From IMG/VR virus record IMGVR_UViG_2921665137_000001, positions 1 through 64,000 of that record: a stretch of DNA of 64,000 nucleotides. One strand, given 5' to 3'. The DNA is from a virus. Below the pieces are notes generated by a model. It did not search any database and was not told the origin of the DNA. It saw only the letters and a program-made list of their open reading frames with translations. How positions within the stretch are numbered: the first letter of the stretch is position 1; every line of letters begins with the position of its first letter. Below, piece by piece: positions 2,764 to 62,597 of this stretch. Made by a program: the position numbers and the translations under genes.

Positions 2764-3188
2764 TTTGGTTCCTTGATCAAATTCGCCTCGACCCACTGGC
2801 GCATGCGCACCCAGCGCTGCTCCGGAGTGTCATATTCGATATGACCAAGGGCGGCATTCCAGTGATAGTCGTTCTCGTCATTCTCGAACACGATTTCTGC
2901 CGCAAGAGCGGGCGCTATGTTGAAAGCCGCCCCAACGGCGTCACGGTCTTCCGGGTCAAGCTTCGCCATATCCACGCCGCGCGCATGCCCCAGGACGCCG
3001 ATCGTGCAGAACTCACCTTCGGCGGTCTGCAGTTCGTCAGCAATTAGGCGCTTTTCCGGCATCGCATCGAGTGCCGCGGCGAGGTCCCGGAAAAATGCCT
3101 GCCCGCGCTTGCCTCTAATGGCTGACTTGACCGCGCCGCGCCACAACTCCACGCCTTCGTAATCGTCGCTATATCCGCTTCTGCTCAT
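2760..3188 (-). CDS. Hypothetical protein (142 aa), first gene of the rtcB sub-operon
   Basis: Clean ORF with balanced composition. Its stop overlaps the start of the next gene. No family recognised. Confidence 0.55.
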   Translation of the reverse strand: MSRSGYSDDYEGVELWRGAVKSAIRGKRGQAFFRDLAAALDAMPEKRLIADELQTAEGEFCTIGVLGHARGVDMAKLDPEDRDAVGAAFNIAPALAAEIVFENDENDYHWNAALGHIEYDTPEQRWVRMRQWVEANLIKEPK

Positions 3189-3421
3189 TTCTCATCCTTA
3201 TATCGCTCACTGCGCTGCCTGGCCCGCTCGACCAACTTCATGAAATGACGCATTCGTAGCAACGTTCCGACAGCCTTCTGATAATCACCCCACGAGCCGA
3301 CCATGAAGCGATACCCTCCGCAGCGCGGGCCGAACTTTGCAATGGCGATAGACAGTTGGGCTTCGGCCTGCTGAAGGTGCTGCTCGACTTCGCTCAGGAC
3401 TTCTGCGTCGGTCTGGCGCAT
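3185..3421 (-). CDS. Hypothetical protein (78 aa)
   Basis: Overlap-coupled member of the leftward operon. Confidence 0.45.
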   Translation of the reverse strand: MRQTDAEVLSEVEQHLQQAEAQLSIAIAKFGPRCGGYRFMVGSWGDYQKAVGTLLRMRHFMKLVERARQRSERYKDEK

Positions 3422-3648
3422 TAACCCTCCCTATCACCCAAAGCACCCCTAGCCCGCCCCTTCGCCCACCCCTCAAACTCGCCCGGGTCGTCCCATTCCG
3501 CCGTATCGGCGTTGGCGATTTCGCGGAGGGTTTGCTCTAGCAGGGTGATGCGGGCATCCTTCGCTTCGGTGAAATCCAGAATCGCATGACGATCGGCGGG
3601 AGTGATTTCGCGATTAGCATCGCGGATAAGTTCAATCAGATCACTCAC
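3421..3648 (-). CDS. Hypothetical protein (75 aa)
   Basis: Acidic small protein, overlap-coupled. Confidence 0.45.
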   Translation of the reverse strand: MSDLIELIRDANREITPADRHAILDFTEAKDARITLLEQTLREIANADTAEWDDPGEFEGWAKGRARGALGDREG

Positions 3649-55143: not shown

Positions 55144-56415
55144 ATGCAAGCCTCAAACATCCCGTCGAAGGTTCCGCTTCCGTTCGCCAATTCGGGCACG
55201 AAGAACACGATCCCGACCGCATCGCAGATCGGCATTACGCCTGGGGCCGCTTCACTGACCGATGGATTTCCTCCGCTCACCTTCACGCCGCTCGCGTCTG
55301 GCGGTGTGCCTCCTGCTGGCGCGGACTTCAACGGGGTTCTTAACCTGATCACGGCCATCCAGCAATGGCAATCGGCTGGCGGCAATTTCAAGTGGGACTC
55401 GGCGTTCTCAACGTCGGTGGGTGGCTATCCGAAGGGCGCCGTGCTGGTCAATTCGACCAACGATGGGATGTGGCTATGCCTGGCCGACAACAACGCGACC
55501 AACCCGGACGCGACGGACGGCAGCGCGGCGAACTGGGCACCGATCGACGCTTATGGCGCAACGAACATCGCCCTGACCAATGCCAACGTCACGTTGACTC
55601 CGGCCCAGTTCTCGAAGCCGATCATCGTCCTGGCCGGCACGCTGACCGGCAACGTCCAGTTGACGATGCCGAAGATCGTCGGGACGTGGTACGTCGTCAA
55701 CAGCACGACTGGCGCATTCACCGCCTCGCTGCTGACCGCATCCGGCACACCCATCGCCATTGCGCAGGGCGGCGCAGCGTTCGTTCGCGGCGACGGCACC
55801 AACGTACTGAACGACGCCCTCCAGATCGCCCCCGCCACGCAGAGCCAGCATGCGGTGCAGCTCAGTCAATTGGGGAACTTCCAGGCTGTCGTGTCGGTTT
55901 CGGGCAACCTGACGCTAAACAGCACCTCGTTTGGCAAGTTCTACCAGACTGTAAGTGGCGCGGGCGGCTACACGATTACGCTATCTGCTGTCGGTAACGG
56001 CGGTCAAACTATCTGCTTTTTTAACAGTTCGACAGGCAATCTCACGCTGACGGCAGCCAACTTTAATACCGCATATGGGTCTGGCGTCACGTCAATCGTG
56101 CTGCCTCCTGCTTCAACAGTTCAGTTGACATACGATGGCACTTCGTACAATGGCATTGGCGGTTCTGCAGCAATTGGTACCGCCATTCGTCCGCAGTCCG
56201 CAACCGGCGTAGGTCAATGGTCGGCACTAACGGTTACCGGGTCAGGGGCAAGTACATTTTTGACGTTGCCCGCAGGCGGGACGTGGGCATATAACGCTTT
56301 CGTTCAAGGCAGTGGTGGAGCAACCGCTATTGCATCGGGCGGTACCAACGTATACGGCCCATATAATTCGACGTCTTTTCCTATCGCAAACGGCTTTGCC
56401 TACAGGATTGCATAA
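55144..56415 (+). CDS. Tail fibre protein
   Basis: Conserved tail-fibre N-terminus (MQASNIPSKVPLPFANSGTKNTIPTASQIGITPGAASLTDGFPPLTF). The C-terminus is β-rich and variable. Confidence 0.75.
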   Translation: MQASNIPSKVPLPFANSGTKNTIPTASQIGITPGAASLTDGFPPLTFTPLASGGVPPAGADFNGVLNLITAIQQWQSAGGNFKWDSAFSTSVGGYPKGAVLVNSTNDGMWLCLADNNATNPDATDGSAANWAPIDAYGATNIALTNANVTLTPAQFSKPIIVLAGTLTGNVQLTMPKIVGTWYVVNSTTGAFTASLLTASGTPIAIAQGGAAFVRGDGTNVLNDALQIAPATQSQHAVQLSQLGNFQAVVSVSGNLTLNSTSFGKFYQTVSGAGGYTITLSAVGNGGQTICFFNSSTGNLTLTAANFNTAYGSGVTSIVLPPASTVQLTYDGTSYNGIGGSAAIGTAIRPQSATGVGQWSALTVTGSGASTFLTLPAGGTWAYNAFVQGSGGATAIASGGTNVYGPYNSTSFPIANGFAYRIA

Positions 56416-56831
56416 TGACCAGTTCCTTCTTGCAGATGGGTTTTGGACCCTCAGTCACCGCAAAATCCGCAACGCCTGCGACGGACGGATATGACGGAAC
56501 ATTCGGTGGATTTCCATACAACATCCATCCGGTCGCGACGCCGGATGTGTATGCTGCCCTGCTAGCAGCAATCGCTGATAACGATGTCACGGTTACGCCG
56601 TACTCGCCTCGAGTTGTCTCGTCGGCGCAGTTGTGGGCCAACTATCAGACGCAAGCTCAGAGCGTCCTGACGGAATCCGACAAGACGATTCTGCGGTGCT
56701 ACGAGAATGGCGTCACGGTGCCTGCGGCATGGGCGACCTACCGCAAGGCGTTGCGCGCGATCATCAGCGCGACGTCCGGGGATCCAGCGCAGCCGTTACC
56801 AGCCAGGCCAGCTTATCCAGCAGGAACATGA
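56415..56831 (+). CDS. Tail fibre assembly protein
   Basis: ATGA-coupled to the fibre gene. C-terminal YRKALRAI motif. Confidence 0.55.
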   Translation: MTSSFLQMGFGPSVTAKSATPATDGYDGTFGGFPYNIHPVATPDVYAALLAAIADNDVTVTPYSPRVVSSAQLWANYQTQAQSVLTESDKTILRCYENGVTVPAAWATYRKALRAIISATSGDPAQPLPARPAYPAGT

Positions 56832-56896
56832 CCGGTCGATTGGCTCACTCTACTCAAGCCTTCGTATATCCGCATCCTGCAATTCGCAACACTACC

Positions 56897-57097
56897 TCAC
56901 CAGATAGACTGCTCGAATTGCACGGCCGCATCATGGCCCCTCTGCCAGCTTCGATACGCATCAGTGCCGGGAGCGTATCGATTGAGATCGCCCGCATTCG
57001 ATTTCCATCCTTCCTGATAGGCCGGGGTTTGCTCAATCTCAGCCAGGTCTCCCCGATCGGTCAAGGCTCGAACAATACGCTTGATCACGGTTTTCAT
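56897..57097 (-). CDS. Hypothetical small protein (66 aa)
   Basis: A GAGGTG ribosome-binding site lies 7 nt upstream of the ATG. Confidence 0.4.
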   Translation of the reverse strand: MKTVIKRIVRALTDRGDLAEIEQTPAYQEGWKSNAGDLNRYAPGTDAYRSWQRGHDAAVQFEQSIW

Positions 57098-57165
57098 TTA
57101 ACGCACCTCGCACTTGCGTTATTTACAAAATAGTAATGCGCGGAAGATTCGCGACAGTATAGCGT

Positions 57166-57990
57166 TTACCGCCCCAGCATCTTCCGCACGACTGGCAGCA
57201 GCGCCGCAAAGTAATTCTTCTCCTTGAATGCATACCCCGCATCGTTCGGGTGCACACAATCGCTGCTCATAAACGCGATGTTCCACGGTTGGGGGTTGGG
57301 CGGCGTCGTGTAGTTCTCGAAGTTCGCCAGATTCGGTAACGCCGTGTAGCCAGAAGCCCCGAATAGTTGGTCAGCCGCCGCGACAAGCGCGTTTGTGCCG
57401 GTTTGTGGGTCGGCGAGGTTCATGTCTGAACGGCAGATCGGGTTAGGCTCGGCATAAACCGGAACCGCGCCGGCTGCTGTAACTGTGCTGATCCACTGCT
57501 GCATCCAGGTGATGTAGGTCGAAACATTCTCGCCAAGTACATACTGGTCATTGATTTCACTGTTGGTGATGACGATATCGGCAGGCGTTGTGAGTTGCGC
57601 AAGGCGTGTCGCAAGCGGCGCAGTGTCTGGCGCCAAGCCTTGCAGGCTGTGCATCAATGTGCCACCGGGAATAGATCCGTCGATCACAGTGACCACGCCT
57701 GCGCCAAGCGCTGCGTCAAAATCAGCCTGCATCATCTGTGCAGGCGAAGGGTCTACGCGGCCAGCAATACCGTTGCCAATACCGGGATACTGCACTTTGT
57801 TAGGCGAATCAATATCGGCTCCGTAGCCCGTGCTGTCTTCGTCAAGATAGATCGTGGCGTGGGTCTTGTGTGCAGGGGCTGGCCCTGCGGCCGTAGTCGA
57901 TGTGGGCGTCGGCGTGCCGCTTCCGCCGCCACCGCCGCAGCCTGCGAGATTGATAGCGAGTACCGCAGCGAGTGCATATTTTTTGAGCAT
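57166..57990 (-). CDS. Lipoprotein SGNH/GDSL-family hydrolase
   Basis: Signal peptide with lipobox (MLKKYALAAVLAINLAGC). Blocks DEDSTGYG, EIND and DCVHPNDAGY. The start is chosen at MLKKY. Confidence 0.7.
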   Translation of the reverse strand: MLKKYALAAVLAINLAGCGGGGGSGTPTPTSTTAAGPAPAHKTHATIYLDEDSTGYGADIDSPNKVQYPGIGNGIAGRVDPSPAQMMQADFDAALGAGVVTVIDGSIPGGTLMHSLQGLAPDTAPLATRLAQLTTPADIVITNSEINDQYVLGENVSTYITWMQQWISTVTAAGAVPVYAEPNPICRSDMNLADPQTGTNALVAAADQLFGASGYTALPNLANFENYTTPPNPQPWNIAFMSSDCVHPNDAGYAFKEKNYFAALLPVVRKMLGR

Positions 57991-58067
57991 GATTATTCCT
58001 TCGGGCGCGTCAATCCTATGACGGCGCGCGCCATGTCGATTCGTTGGAAAGAGGGGGAAAGCTGCCG

Positions 58068-58920
58068 TTATTCGGGCTGCTGGATTAACTGCCGAGTGAG
58101 TGGCGCGAGAATCGCGGCCTCGCGTTGCGCCTTGATTTGGAAAATGGCGTTGTCTGGAAATATCCCAGCCGTATAGTGCGAGCACAGGTTCGGGATCGTT
58201 TGCAGGTAGTCGTACTGCTTCACGAGCGGGACGCTGTACTGCGCCGCGATGTTATCCATCGCCGAGACGTAGTTCGCCAAGTATGGTCGGCTATTGTCGC
58301 AAACGGGACCCGGCTCTTCCAAAACGGCGATTTTTCCTGCAACTCTCACCGCCTGAACCCATGCCACAAGCGCGTCCGAATATGGTCCGAGAGATTGCGA
58401 CAGGTCATCATTGACCGCATGTGCATCCAGAACGATTTGCGCCTTCGATGACTGAATGCGTTGTGCGAACGGAGCGCCACCACCGTCAACGCCGGCCATC
58501 ATGTTCAGAAGCGTCGATGCCGATCCGCCTTCAGCGCGATTGTCGAGCGTTATCGCATCCCCGAATTGCGCTTGCAAGATGGCCTGCGTGTCGGCCGGCT
58601 CGCTTTGCGGGTTGAATGTGTAGAACGGTGGCGAAGAGCCGAACATCGCATCGTCGCCGTGGACCTCGATCAGGACTGTCTTTGGCGGCGGTGCGACTGG
58701 CGTTGACGCCGGAAGCGGTGCAACGGGAGTTGATGCCGGAATTGGCGCAGAAGCCGCCTCCGGGCCTGACGCAGCAACCGGAGCCGATACCGGCGCAGAT
58801 GCCGCTATAGGCGAAGACGCCACGATCTGAACGGGCGCGACTGGCTGGGCTTTGCTAGTCGGCGATGTGTCGGGCGTATTGCCGCCGCATGCCGCGATGC
58901 AAACCGACAGAGCCGCGATT
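58068..58920 (-). CDS. Lipoprotein paralog of the SGNH hydrolase, with no canonical start codon and a degenerate catalytic block (possible pseudogene or unusual initiation)
   Basis: Lipobox LSVCIAAC, a Pro/Ala/Ser linker and a domain alignable to 57166..57990 (GDDAMFG, AVNDD, LCSHY replacing DCVHP). The in-frame region upstream of the lipobox has no ATG/GTG/TTG after the stop of the regulator gene. Confidence 0.45.
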
Positions 58921-59215
58921 ACTCCTGCTCGCCAACGTCCGCCGACAGATCGATCGTAGCCCCTGCCCGGCGCATGCGCGCGAGGATTCGTTCGATAGCC
59001 TCGGCGCTCAGTTCTTTTTGAGCCAGCCCGAAGAATAACGTCTGCGCGCTGATCTCCCGCCGTTTCTCGCCCTGTTCCGTGTAGCCCCTCCAGTGTCGGC
59101 CGCTCGAAAGGCCGAACAACTTCGCCATCCGGGCACTCGATAGACCGAGTTCGTCCTTGAGGCGCTGAAGCTCTTTCGCAGAAGGTGCCTTGTACTTCAT
59201 GTCGAAATAATCCAT
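58919..59215 (-). CDS. XRE-like HTH transcriptional regulator (98 aa)
   Basis: SAKELQRLKDELGLSSARMAKLFGLSSGRHWRGYTEQ. Divergent from the lysis genes and heads the lipoprotein operon. Confidence 0.6.
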   Translation of the reverse strand: MDYFDMKYKAPSAKELQRLKDELGLSSARMAKLFGLSSGRHWRGYTEQGEKRREISAQTLFFGLAQKELSAEAIERILARMRRAGATIDLSADVGEQE

Positions 59216-59374
59216 CGCCAGTAAAGGCGCGAAACAAGCGGTTCATGGTTTTCCTCTCGGAGATTGTGGCCGCGCGAGTGCGCTTCCAGTACTGAGCATC
59301 CTAGGCGCAAAGTGCCTAGGCGTCAAGCAAAACATATCGCCGTCATCGAGCGGCTTTTTCTTTTCGGGGCATCA

Positions 59375-59638
59375 ATGGATAACACGGTTCTCTACATCGG
59401 CGGCGCAGTAGCAACGGCAGTCGGCACGGTCGCATGGTGGACATTTCGCTCGATACACGGACGCGTAGAGGCAAATGAAAAAGACCTCGCCGCCTTCAAG
59501 TTGCACTGCGCGGAAACGTATGTGACGTCAAGCGCCTTGGAGAAGGCCATTGATCGTTTCAGCGAGTCGATTAATGCCGTGTTCGACAAGTTGAATAGAA
59601 TCGACGAAAAGTTAGATCGCAAGGTAGATAAGCCATGA
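59375..59638 (+). CDS. Putative holin / single-TM lysis protein
   Basis: N-terminal transmembrane helix (VLYIGGAVATAVGTVAWWTF) with a coiled-coil C-terminus. It is the first gene of the lysis cluster. Confidence 0.4.
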   Translation: MDNTVLYIGGAVATAVGTVAWWTFRSIHGRVEANEKDLAAFKLHCAETYVTSSALEKAIDRFSESINAVFDKLNRIDEKLDRKVDKP

Positions 59639-59991
59639 CCCATGCCATCAAATGGCTCGACGACGTTGAGGATCACGACTACGACGCCGCCCATTCGTAC
59701 CTCTCGCTCCACTTCGACCAGCGGCGAGTCGAAATGCTGGTTGATCTTCTGCGCGAGTCGGAAATCACTCAGTTCGCTGCCAAGGATATCTTCCGCGCTA
59801 GTGGACTGACGTTATTGACCGCCGACAACCGGCATGTCGAGCACAACAGGAAAAAGGTCGAGAGCGGAAAGCGGTTGTCTCCGATCCTGCTGGTGCGCGG
59901 ACAACCCTTGATCGTTTGCGACGGCTTCCATCGTTTGTCGTTCGCCTACGGCGTCAGCGAAGACGCCGAGATCCCCTGCAAGATCGCGTAG
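59635..59991 (+). CDS. Hypothetical protein (118 aa) in the lysis cluster
   Basis: ATGA-coupled. Confidence 0.5.
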   Translation: MTHAIKWLDDVEDHDYDAAHSYLSLHFDQRRVEMLVDLLRESEITQFAAKDIFRASGLTLLTADNRHVEHNRKKVESGKRLSPILLVRGQPLIVCDGFHRLSFAYGVSEDAEIPCKIA

Positions 59992-60608: not shown

Positions 60609-60635
60609 TTGGCTACGCTCGCGAAGGAAATAGCA

Positions 60636-62597
60636 ATGAAACGATGGACTAAAGCGGTGGCAGCCGCGTTTCTGATGACCGCGAGTGCGGCCTATGCGGT
60701 GAATGCCAACTACACCACCGATTGGATTGGCAACACCTACGGGACCAGCGCCACTCACGTGCAGAACGCTTCCCGGTCATTGTGGGTCGACCCAGGGAAA
60801 ACCGGCGTGTTCTACACCGCTTCGATGTGGGATGAAAACGGTAGCGGCATCGAGCAGTACACCAGTGGGCACGTGACGCAAGGCATCGGCGCGCACGGTG
60901 AAGCCCAGGGCGACACACTGACCGCCAATGGCACGGATATCTGGTCTCCTCGTCAGTTCGGCCGGCCCTGTCCTACCTGCTCGTTCACCAGTGGTCTGGT
61001 CTTTGACTACGACCGCACAAGCGGCAACGCGAAGAGCTATTTGCAGGTGTCGTGCGACACGACCGAACGCAAGTCGGATGTAATCAAGGGCATCGCGACA
61101 TGGGGTAACGTCTGGGCGGCGAGCGACAACAACTCCGTATGCCAGCGAGTGCGCCTGTACAGCACCGCGAACGCCTGGATTCGCGACATTCCCGCAACTG
61201 ATCCGGGCGCGATTGCGTTTGACCGCAACGGCAACTTACTAGTCGCGCAGGAAGCCGAAGGCGCGGTACTGCAGATCAGTCAGGCCGGCACGACGATCCT
61301 GCACACGCTCACGCTGCCTGCTGGCGAAGTTCCTCACTCCCTCTACTTCGACCCAACCACGCAATACCTCTGGATTGGGGATGCAGGTCCGGACGAGAAC
61401 GTCAAGATTTATGACACTCGCACCTTCACGCTGGTTAGTACGTTCGGGACACCGGGCGGCTATCTCGACACGACGACAGGCACGAAGGGCCAGACGGGCA
61501 GTCTGCGCTTTGCGCGTATCGATGGCATCGGCAAGGACGCATCCGGCAACATCTATATCCTCTCGCAACCGTGGGGCGCGGCCTGGGATAACGGCCGCAC
61601 CGGGACGAACCTGTACGCCTACTCGCCTACCGGCACGCTGCTCTATAACCTACAGGGCCTGAACTTCGAAGGTATCGGCTCACCGGACCCGGCAACCGAC
61701 GCGCAGAAGTTCTACAGTGGTTACCACATTTTCTCATGTGCCGCTTACCCCTGTTCCGGTGGGAACTACGTTGCCAGCACGGTCGATCCTTTCGACTACC
61801 CCGGTGACCTGAGGCTCGTCACCGATCCCGCGGTGTATGCGGGGCGTGGCCTGGACTTTGGCATGGTCTACGACAACGGCGTAAATCAGATCCTTCTGGC
61901 GACTGATCAGGACCCCGACAACTTCGCCCTCTATCACTTCAATGCAGCGAACGGGGACATTGCGATCCCGCAAGGCTGGATTACGAATGTGCTGGGCATG
62001 GCCTCGACGCACATCCGTAAGGGTTTTGCGCTTGATGACCAGGGCGGCGTATGGGCAAGCGAGGACAAGGGCGCATGTTCTGCGGCTATCTGCTACTGGC
62101 CTTTGACCGGCTTCGCGTCTGATGGAACACCCCAGTGGGGGACGATGCAGTCCTGGCCGATTCCGGCGACGATCGGCACGCTCGGCCGCGTGATCTATCT
62201 GCCGGCAACGGACACGCTGATCCTCGCGAACATCATCGGCACGGACTGGACGTCGATCGGGACTCGAGTTGAGGTCTATCACGGCTGGGTTGCAGGCAAC
62301 CAGACCAACCCGGTTGTCATCAACCTGACGAGCACCAACCCGAAGTCGATCGCAGCCGCAGGCAACTATCTGTTCGTCGGCTACGTCCACACCGTGCCGA
62401 ATGTCGATGCGTTCAACCTGACGACCGGCACCCTGGACAACACGTTCATCAACAGCAATCCGAACAATGTCTATGTCGGCAACGACGTCGATTCGATGTA
62501 CGGGATACGCGCAGTGTTGCGGTCGAACGGCGAGTACGTCGTCACCAAGGATGATTACAACGGGACGAGCATCGTCGTCTACCGCTGGACGCCGTAA
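60636..62597 (+). CDS. Secreted β-propeller (NHL/SMP-30-like repeat) protein, prophage cargo
   Basis: Signal peptide MKRWTKAVAAAFLMTASAAYA. Repeated blade-like motifs (AFDRNGNLLVA, DASGNIYI). Confidence 0.65.
   Translation: MKRWTKAVAAAFLMTASAAYAVNANYTTDWIGNTYGTSATHVQNASRSLWVDPGKTGVFYTASMWDENGSGIEQYTSGHVTQGIGAHGEAQGDTLTANGTDIWSPRQFGRPCPTCSFTSGLVFDYDRTSGNAKSYLQVSCDTTERKSDVIKGIATWGNVWAASDNNSVCQRVRLYSTANAWIRDIPATDPGAIAFDRNGNLLVAQEAEGAVLQISQAGTTILHTLTLPAGEVPHSLYFDPTTQYLWIGDAGPDENVKIYDTRTFTLVSTFGTPGGYLDTTTGTKGQTGSLRFARIDGIGKDASGNIYILSQPWGAAWDNGRTGTNLYAYSPTGTLLYNLQGLNFEGIGSPDPATDAQKFYSGYHIFSCAAYPCSGGNYVASTVDPFDYPGDLRLVTDPAVYAGRGLDFGMVYDNGVNQILLATDQDPDNFALYHFNAANGDIAIPQGWITNVLGMASTHIRKGFALDDQGGVWASEDKGACSAAICYWPLTGFASDGTPQWGTMQSWPIPATIGTLGRVIYLPATDTLILANIIGTDWTSIGTRVEVYHGWVAGNQTNPVVINLTSTNPKSIAAAGNYLFVGYVHTVPNVDAFNLTTGTLDNTFINSNPNNVYVGNDVDSMYGIRAVLRSNGEYVVTKDDYNGTSIVVYRWTP

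Follow-up and report, generated by a model that had tools for sequence, protein, structure and literature searches.

Same-strand gene overlaps and embedded phage lipoprotein genes are already known, as are XRE-type helix-turn-helix (HTH) proteins and SGNH lipoproteins of the ordinary kind. The closest described systems include: (i) the embedded spanin genes Rz/Rz1 of phage lambda, in which the short Rz1 gene is contained entirely within Rz and is read from a start codon and ribosome-binding site (RBS) of its own, and (ii) orfA/orfB of the IS3 family and other -1 frameshift cassettes, in which an HTH open reading frame (ORF) of about 100 amino acids (aa) is followed by a start-less ORF in the -1 frame. 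Unidirectional overlapping genes are also described to arise by loss of a start codon and adoption of an upstream in-frame start (PMC3887535). Here, we describe a prophage-type locus in which a lipoprotein gene (gene B) is probably translated from a start codon that lies upstream of a regulator gene, through the whole of that gene in its -1 frame. The locus is found in a 64,000-nucleotide (nt) stretch of viral DNA (IMG/VR virus record IMGVR_UViG_2921665137_000001, positions 1 to 64,000; hereafter the window, to which all positions refer unless another locus is named), where a minus-strand island carries the regulator, gene B, a second lipoprotein gene (gene A) and a small ORF.

Similarly to lambda Rz/Rz1, the lipoprotein frame of the island shares its DNA with another gene in a different frame of the same strand. 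Unlike Rz1, this frame is the outer gene: it begins ahead of the nested HTH gene and covers it completely, and what overlaps is an N-terminal extension, not the functional domain. An HTH ORF of about 100 aa followed by a start-less -1-frame ORF is shared with IS3 orfA/orfB; by contrast with the latter, no slippery heptamer or stimulator is present here and the -1 frame has a canonical upstream start. As in the route proposed in PMC3887535, the downstream gene lacks its own start and would use one inside or beyond its neighbor. Compared to that route, the overlap here spans the entire upstream gene (~280-300 nt), is stop-free across a diverse family and is accompanied by a conserved ATG preceded by a Shine-Dalgarno (SD) sequence (SD-ATG) and by a hairpin. 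Literature searches returned no description of this arrangement, and the phiE058/phiE067 paper is silent on these genes. What was not found described is the combination of a cargo frame that spans a whole regulator gene, a single conserved RBS, a hairpin with an SD-less nested start, and interchangeable cargo that is mostly start-less.

The regulator ORF (58919..59215, minus strand; stop codon TAA at 58921-58919) is nested in the +1 frame of a 392-codon ORF (58068..59246, minus strand), which is the proposed real gene B precursor and is called by an independent gene caller in place of the regulator. Gene B occupies the -1 frame of the regulator, and this frame has no stop from ATG 59246 to 58068; the continuity of in-frame codons from the 3' end of the regulator into gene B had been noted correctly in an earlier, sequence-only reading of the window (hereafter the original prediction). 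The frame includes no ATG, GTG or TTG between TTG 59237 and a GTG that lies 22 codons past the lipobox Cys. The in-frame starts upstream of the Cys are 119 and 116 codons away, beyond the ~30 residues expected of an N-terminal signal peptide. The original prediction was right that gene B has no start near its lipobox; it overlooked that the frame is open back to an ATG preceded by an SD (GAGAGGA, 59252..59258, minus strand, as read from the sequence), which stands 5 nt upstream of ATG 59246. The lipoprotein signal peptide of gene B (58887..58937, minus strand; RWR-AGVIAALSVC-IAAC, with the Cys codon at 58889-58887) has an n-region that overlaps the last codons of the regulator. A lipobox of the form [LVI][ASTVI][GAS]C, preceded by a positively charged n-region and a hydrophobic region, is present in both gene A and gene B. 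The three elements (an RWR n-region, a hydrophobic stretch and a lipobox) are seen again in homologues that have no start and differ in their DNA.

The same layout is widespread in related loci, which were gathered by regulator homology and by cargo homology. Of the 49 distinct regulator sequences examined, which come from Burkholderiaceae prophages, 42 have a -1 frame that is stop-free across the whole regulator and runs into a downstream coding region, which is at least 50 codons long in 41 of these 42 open loci and 39 codons long in L074. Thirty of the 42 cargos are without any ATG, GTG or TTG in the 12 codons before and the 12 codons after the regulator stop, and 14 of 24 have none in the 45 codons that precede the lipobox Cys. 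In the IMG/VR set, the -1 frame is open in 17 of 18 homologues, and in the genome set in 19 of 27, where synonymous-codon shuffles expect 2.4 per set; the +1 frame is open in none of the 18 IMG/VR homologues. As GC-rich genes often have an open -1 frame, the expectation was also calibrated on real genes. The shuffles are somewhat too strict: among 266 control segments of 96 codons, taken from other genes of these loci, 47 (17.7%) are open versus the 9.6% predicted by shuffling. Even at 18%, and allowing for the relatedness of the loci, this comparison places 42 of 49 far beyond chance. The best control is an internal one, provided by regulator homologues without an abutting -1 cargo, which carry one to five stops in that frame. 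Two such loci (L092 and L094) retain the SD-ATG without a fused cargo, and the leader closes after 57-65 codons.

A purine-rich GAGAGGA/GAAAGGA-N5-7-ATG element is found in ~40 loci (nearly all of the related ones), 43-49 nt (most often 46) upstream of the conserved Met of the regulator, and this SD-ATG is always in the cargo frame. L003 has most of the regulator replaced and nonetheless keeps an SD-ATG ORF that reads in frame into a start-less lipoprotein. A long off-frame extension at the N-terminus, as in gene B, is noted in the P0009 and P0015 homologues, and the long frame is open in the cultured phage phiE131, which encodes the regulator as GP029 and an SGNH protein as GP028. The layout is also found, with an outer membrane protein (OMP)-like cargo, in the complete chromosome 1 of P. 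xenovorans LB400, and in isolate genomes of Burkholderia, Cupriavidus, Caballeronia and Trinickia. The finding of the layout in these three settings (a cultured phage, a complete chromosome and isolate genomes) excludes a sequencing artefact. These comparisons show that the stop-free frame which joins the conserved SD-ATG to the cargo is selectively maintained.

The cargos are of several kinds: dead or active SGNH lipoproteins, OMP-like proteins with a signal of the signal peptidase I (SPase-I) type (RWRAAAVAMSLGCAAASAHA) and small cytoplasmic proteins. The layout looks like a conserved, portable module of Burkholderiaceae prophages with varying fused cargo, an overlapping-gene design that is overlooked by annotation pipelines. 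The OMP-like cargo that ends in ...KYRF is found in L064 (2955-4010; LB400 chromosome 1) and in L061, L073, L089, L007 and L008. The regulator gene contains the codons for the n-region of its SPase-I type signal (RWR..AMALGCATAAAHA), and the sole nearby Met is too close to the cleavage site for a start. In the early region (primase side) of L067, L071, L072, L075, L076, L083 and L084 (~3260-3620), the -1 frame encodes start-less small proteins that end in AEV(S/R/C/H)H(G/A); downstream paralogues in this family have normal starts.

The nested regulator has a start of its own. Its conserved ATG is at 59200 (93 aa, with the Met before an xYxPP motif), 46 nt downstream of ATG 59246, and an alternative ATG is found at 59215 (98 aa); public annotations give the regulator both starts (98 and 93 aa). 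The conservation of the former indicates that the true start is probably ATG 59200, not necessarily 59215. No SD precedes the regulator ATG in the window or in related loci. A small GC hairpin (59211..59233, minus strand) lies between the two ATGs, at nt 14-36 after the A of ATG 59246, and ends 10 nt before the regulator ATG. The window hairpin has a folding energy of -9.0 kcal/mol (z = -2.4); across 27 diverse loci the mean z is -1.75, with 26 of 27 values negative and with stem sequences that differ. In related loci, the hairpin occupies nt 17-35 after the SD-ATG and ends 6-20 nt (mostly 7-14) before the regulator ATG. RNAalifold detects no in-register consensus in the leader region, and the hairpin is backed by per-sequence z-scores only. 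A role of the hairpin in bringing the SD near the regulator ATG, as in phage T4 gene 38, was considered and rejected; judging from the fold results, the leftover ~25-30 nt is too long.

Based on these features, translation of gene B probably begins at ATG 59246 and yields a long precursor whose frame is overprinted on that of the regulator. Ribosomes that bind at GAGAGGA-N5-ATG 59246 would follow the -1 frame through the nested regulator, such that ~103 Arg-rich codons are translated ahead of the signal peptide, lipobox and SGNH-fold domain to form a 392-residue pre-prolipoprotein. The RWR/hydrophobic/lipobox segment would serve as an internal lipoprotein signal from which Lgt and LspA release a mature lipoprotein, predicted to be the same as the one made by normally started homologues. 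The regulator would be made separately, and at low level, from the SD-less ATG 59200 behind the hairpin. With ribosomes supplied by the long frame, the start codon of the cargo itself would become dispensable and, by this account, has been lost in most lineages. A more elaborate proposal, which we advance only tentatively, is that of a portable dual-coding module of ~300 nt for prophage accessory genes, in which an XRE autorepressor is encoded in one frame, while the -1 frame is an obligatory, sequence-unconstrained 'on-ramp' from a single strong RBS to an interchangeable, start-shedding cargo, either secreted or cytoplasmic; how much regulator is made relative to cargo would depend on whether ribosomes start at the SD-ATG or at the SD-less regulator ATG shielded by the hairpin, and the signal peptide of a secreted cargo would work internally after ~100 residues.

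Several points weigh against translation of gene B from the upstream ATG. The proposal is founded on comparative sequence evidence, and kinship among the loci means that the counts overstate the number of independent events. Some cargos, such as that of phiE131, have a plausible RBS and start of their own (in phiE131 GGGAG-N5-TTG, with the TTG overlapping the TGA of the regulator), and the frame is still open. Because the frame is open even there, supplying the cargo with ribosomes may not be the only function of the long frame. Four-fold-site divergence of regulator versus cargo (pooled, 0.415 versus 0.543) is confounded by mosaicism, with the opposite trend in L015/L017, for example. The regulator-cargo spacers of loci in which the cargo has its own ATG have too few stops in any frame to give power. 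We know of no described lipoprotein with its signal peptide behind ~100 residues, and export competence is assumed. The proposal also does not account for the use of an SD-less regulator ATG inside an actively translated frame. The extension itself (~103 residues in the -1 frame of the regulator) is basic, with a mean of 18% Arg and a net charge of about +9, and is poorly conserved; a search with the 125-residue extension identified 7 relatives at E < 1e-3 among 1.84 billion representatives. As the extension is hardly conserved as a protein, selection on it is suggested to act mainly for the absence of stops.

The serious rival holds that the long -1 frame is mainly a leader ORF that serves the regulator, either by opening the hairpin for initiation at the SD-less ATG or by competing with it. 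The cargo would then be made otherwise, and the continuity of the frame would be secondary to 4-nt overlaps of the ATGA/TTGA type. Such overlaps (TTGA in phiE131, ATGA in L078) naturally place a cargo in the -1 frame. The leader proposal also accommodates the persistence of the SD-ATG and leader in L092 and L094, the presence of the hairpin between the two ATGs in 26 of 27 loci and the open frame of phiE131, whose cargo is preceded by a good RBS. A leader has no need, however, for ~100 open codons joined to a cargo; its closure after 57-65 codons in L092 and L094 implies that closure is tolerated when no cargo is fused, and most cargos are without any alternative start. We consider this explanation unlikely.

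Initiation of gene B at a non-canonical codon, raised in the original prediction, or re-initiation at the regulator stop would place the start at ATC 58918-58916 (within TAATC) or at a CTG three codons on, aided by an AGGAG in the last codons of the regulator. The AGGAG is just upstream of TAATC, the ATC is kept in the window, L002 and L003, and the TTG of phiE131 is in nearly the same place, after GGGAG-N5. Yet the AGGAG is only 2 nt from the ATC, no SD is found there in L002, and such a start leaves a signal peptide of 7-10 residues without a charged n-region, the conserved RWR being upstream, inside the regulator ORF. A non-canonical start is unneeded given the conserved, canonical SD-ATG in frame, leaves the stop-free -1 frame over the whole regulator unexplained and is judged quite unlikely.

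A programmed -1 frameshift near the 3' end of the regulator would generate an HTH-transmembrane-SGNH fusion (ToxR-like) or feed the lipoprotein pathway. The original prediction listed a -1 shift from the regulator among its options, and the position of gene B, start-less in the -1 frame as in IS3-family orfA/orfB, is what this mechanism would produce. It is nonetheless very unlikely: no X_XXY_YYZ heptamer is present in the window or in 40 of the 49 homologues, none is conserved in position, and an Rfam scan of 56800-59500 returned nothing at E <= 1, frameshift elements included. In addition, most of the regulator is missing in L003, and a shift near the 3' end could operate without an open frame that reaches back, past the regulator start, to a conserved SD-ATG. 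Also considered was an early +1 shift, at a conserved TTT-CGC, by which ribosomes from the SD-ATG would enter the regulator frame; it was rejected as a general mechanism, as L022 has a stop in the regulator frame at +25; such a shift is unnecessary because the regulator Met before xYxPP is universally conserved. Finally, the option that gene B is a pseudogene, to which the lack of a nearby start, the loss of Ser, Asp and His and the fragmentary NCBI annotation might point, is hardly tenable: more than 25 homologues (40-74% identity) have an intact ORF, these same substitutions and motifs that are strongly conserved, a start-less cargo is the majority state in the module, and the SGNH fold is confidently modelled.

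The mature gene B product (58068..58889, minus strand) is composed of a Pro/Ala/Ser linker and an SGNH-fold domain, as recognized by alignments, structure modelling and a match to phrog_8011. The AlphaFold2 (AF2) model, built on the alignment of gene B homologues, has a predicted local distance difference test (pLDDT) score of 83 overall and >90 across most of residues 100-270. In a fold search with gene B, 96 PDB entries matched at E <= 1e-3; at the top of the list are GDSL lipases and TesA, for which the template modelling scores (target) are 0.74-0.79. The families of gene A and gene B are homologous (hhalign probability 99.9%, E = 8e-33), as the original prediction of paralogous SGNH-like lipoproteins implied. 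Gene B has GDD for GDS (Ser to Asp) and A-G-I-F-P-D for D-C-V-H-P-N (Asp to Ala, His to Phe), while it keeps the block II Gly and the block III Asn. Of the earlier alignment of the two genes, the pairing of GDD with GDS stands, whereas A-G-I-F-P, not LCSHY, aligns with DCVHP by both MAFFT and hhalign.

Gene B has ~25 homologues in the databases (40-74% identity), and 45 related loci are found in IMG/VR. Nearly all (more than 25) have GDD plus G/C-(I/L)-(F/Y)-P-D, so that Ser, Asp and His are lost together in ORFs that are intact; the description of gene B as 'degenerate' is thus not borne out. The motifs VDGGG.PFAQR and VLEEPGPVCD are strongly conserved in the family. Canonical residues (GDS and DxxHP) are retained in a small number of relatives, P0025 and phiE131 GP028 among them. 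Within the dead-SGNH clade, D135, G136, R144, E192 and C197 (mature-protein numbering) are invariant and E191, D198, H238 and D246 nearly so. These invariant polar residues, which are the clade's own, could form a new binding or catalytic site. The sequence and model data indicate that the conserved gene B lipoprotein has the SGNH fold without being catalytic and is a pseudo-enzyme or binding protein, not a canonical hydrolase. Tandem GDD and GDS genes, the dead copy followed by the active one, are limited to the window, L004, L023 and L030/31. A constant pairing of gene B with an active paralogue was considered and rejected, as most GDD-type genes stand alone. The public entries for gene B (GenBank NPT59121.1 and RefSeq WP_236002285.1) are fragments of 192 and 144 aa that start at internal Met codons and are without the signal peptide, linker and block I.

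Gene A (57166..57990, minus strand) has its own GGAA-N5-ATG and encodes a protein 100% identical to an SGNH/GDSL hydrolase family protein of Paraburkholderia elongata, the species to which this identity assigns the window. Its lipoprotein signal peptide (MLKKYALAAVLAINLAGC; parts MLKK-YALAAVLAIN-LAGC) has the Met at the extreme N-terminus. The catalytic blocks are EDS (not GDS) in block I, DGSIPG, EIND and DCVHP, and S53, N147, D244 and H247 are invariant in 22 homologues. Against Pfam PF13472, gene A scores 22.6 bits, under the cut-off of 32.9, which many homologues pass. The SGNH blocks are retained as the original prediction had it (Ser, Gly, Asn and Asp..His are present, with EDS in block I). 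By sequence, gene A appears to be a catalytically intact, canonical SGNH lipoprotein and is predicted to be an active esterase or transferase.

The regulator is named an XRE family transcriptional regulator by NCBI and matches phrog_20491 (function unknown; E = 6e-25) from residue 6. Its match to the Pfam Xre-like-HTH family is 19 bits, under the cut-off of 25.8, and some of its homologues match HTH_31 and MqsA, in every case below cut-off. The AF2 model (pLDDT 88) has five helices, and the top Foldseek matches are all XRE-type HTH proteins (Aca10, AcrIF24-HTH, HigA, C-proteins and P22 c2), in agreement with the earlier assignment of an HTH regulator. Aca10 has a template modelling score (target) of 0.86 and a root-mean-square deviation of 1.9 Å; the Foldseek E-values are weak for so small a domain. 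Like the Aca autorepressors and the C proteins of restriction-modification systems, the regulator is a small XRE-type HTH protein of the same fold (Foldseek matches to Aca10, AcrIF24-HTH, Aca1/2 and C.Esp1396I) and is encoded in an operon that it likely represses through a promoter palindrome. Unlike in those systems, in which the regulator is not nested in a cargo frame, nesting is found here, and the sequence similarity is marginal (E = 0.01-0.9). A 171-aa regulator variant in L012 (3803-4318), of which the N-terminal HTH part is 49% identical, is without an SD-ATG and carries 4 stops in its -1 frame.

The SD-ATG of the window is preceded by a promoter-like site (59298..59326, minus strand) with a -35 element TTGACG (59326-59321), a 17-nt spacer and a -10 element TAGGAT (59303-59298). 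A consensus scan gave 2 such sites in the region versus 1.2 expected, a signal that is weak taken alone; the position of the site upstream of the SD-ATG is kept in L002. The candidate operator (59300..59322) overlaps the -10 element and spacer and includes two copies of CCTAGGCG (59300-59307 and 59315-59322). These copies had been described as direct repeats 6 nt apart; both are present, but they are spaced by 7 nt and together form a perfect inverted repeat, CCTAGGC-N7-GCCTAGG. A TAGGC-N7-GCCTA element is at the same relative position in 13 related loci. The regulator is predicted to bind this candidate operator and would thereby probably repress the promoter of the cassette.

The island lies between the tail fibre (55144-56415, phrog_12796) and tail-fibre-assembly (56415-56831, phrog_4912) genes on one side and a plus-strand lysis block with a GH19 endolysin on the other. 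The PHROG matches of these flanking genes bear out the slot originally assigned to the island, and its four minus-strand ORFs (56897-57097, 57166-57990, the gene B frame ending at 58068, and 58919-59215) are located as claimed. The final gene of the cassette (56897..57097, minus strand) encodes 66 aa, is annotated as hypothetical and has only a weak match to phrog_1757; it is outside the conserved module and absent from L002-L004. This context supports an accessory (moron-like) cassette that is divergently transcribed in the tail-fibre/lysis slot. When the island was compared at the DNA level with cultured phages, in searches for close and for distant similarity, there was no near match; the single match is a 207-nt stretch of the regulator in Paraburkholderia phage IPK.

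On the plus strand, a terminator-like hairpin and T run (59339-59354) is found 20 nt before the ATG of the first lysis-block ORF (region 59339-59375). A hairpin and T run followed by an SD-less ATG also precedes regulator homologues that are without an overprinted frame (L081, L082, L085-L088 and L091; ~2960-3003). The first lysis-block ORF (59375-59638, plus strand; 87 aa) has PHROG matches to a lipoprotein or Rz-like spanin and to two function-unknown families, and has no holin-family match among PHROGs. No PHROG match is detected for the 118-aa ORF inside the lysis block (59635-59991, plus strand) or the 662-aa ORF after the endolysin (60609-62597, plus strand), the N-terminus of which is signal-peptide-like.

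The proteins with which genes A and B may be compared include the SGNH domains of OafA/OafB, PatB/Ape1, esterase tailspikes and TesA, which form the SGNH/GDSL comparison group and act on acylated glycans. Cor and Llp-type lipoproteins of prophages are encoded near tail-fibre genes and have a suspected role in superinfection exclusion. Like SGNH/GDSL hydrolases, gene A has all four blocks and gene B has the fold (TesA/GDSL template modelling score ~0.75-0.79). Gene B differs from these hydrolases in being without the Ser nucleophile and the Asp-His pair, and no partner acyltransferase is in the island. The resemblance to Cor and Llp is that of a prophage lipoprotein gene beside receptor-binding genes; by contrast, there is no sequence or fold relationship. 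SGNH domains are also found in tailspikes, and in phage Magia a related SGNH lipoprotein is encoded beside an AT3 O-acetyltransferase and a tail fibre. SGNH/GDSL hydrolases on acylated glycans are reviewed in PMC9487903. From this context, the target of A and B is most likely an acylated envelope glycan, and their role may be in the de- or trans-acylation of envelope glycans or in receptor masking near tail-fibre genes. The earlier suggestion of surface esterases that remodel lipopolysaccharide or O-antigen and block superinfection is, in the same context, plausible.

If the long frame is translated, a class of prophage cargo in Burkholderia, Paraburkholderia, Cupriavidus and their relatives would be systematically mis-annotated, either as truncated fragments or with the nested regulator dropped. 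The locus would then be a well-replicated natural case (dozens of diverged loci) of a phage/bacterial gene overprinted across an entire neighbor, with selection against stops, and would be useful in the debate on how frequent functional same-strand overlaps are in GC-rich genomes. It would also raise the questions of whether a lipoprotein/Sec signal peptide functions behind a basic extension of ~100 residues and how an SD-less internal ATG is used inside a translated frame. Separately, the conserved dead SGNH lipoprotein, which in some loci has an active partner, is a candidate factor for envelope modification or receptor masking, encoded next to the tail-fibre genes.

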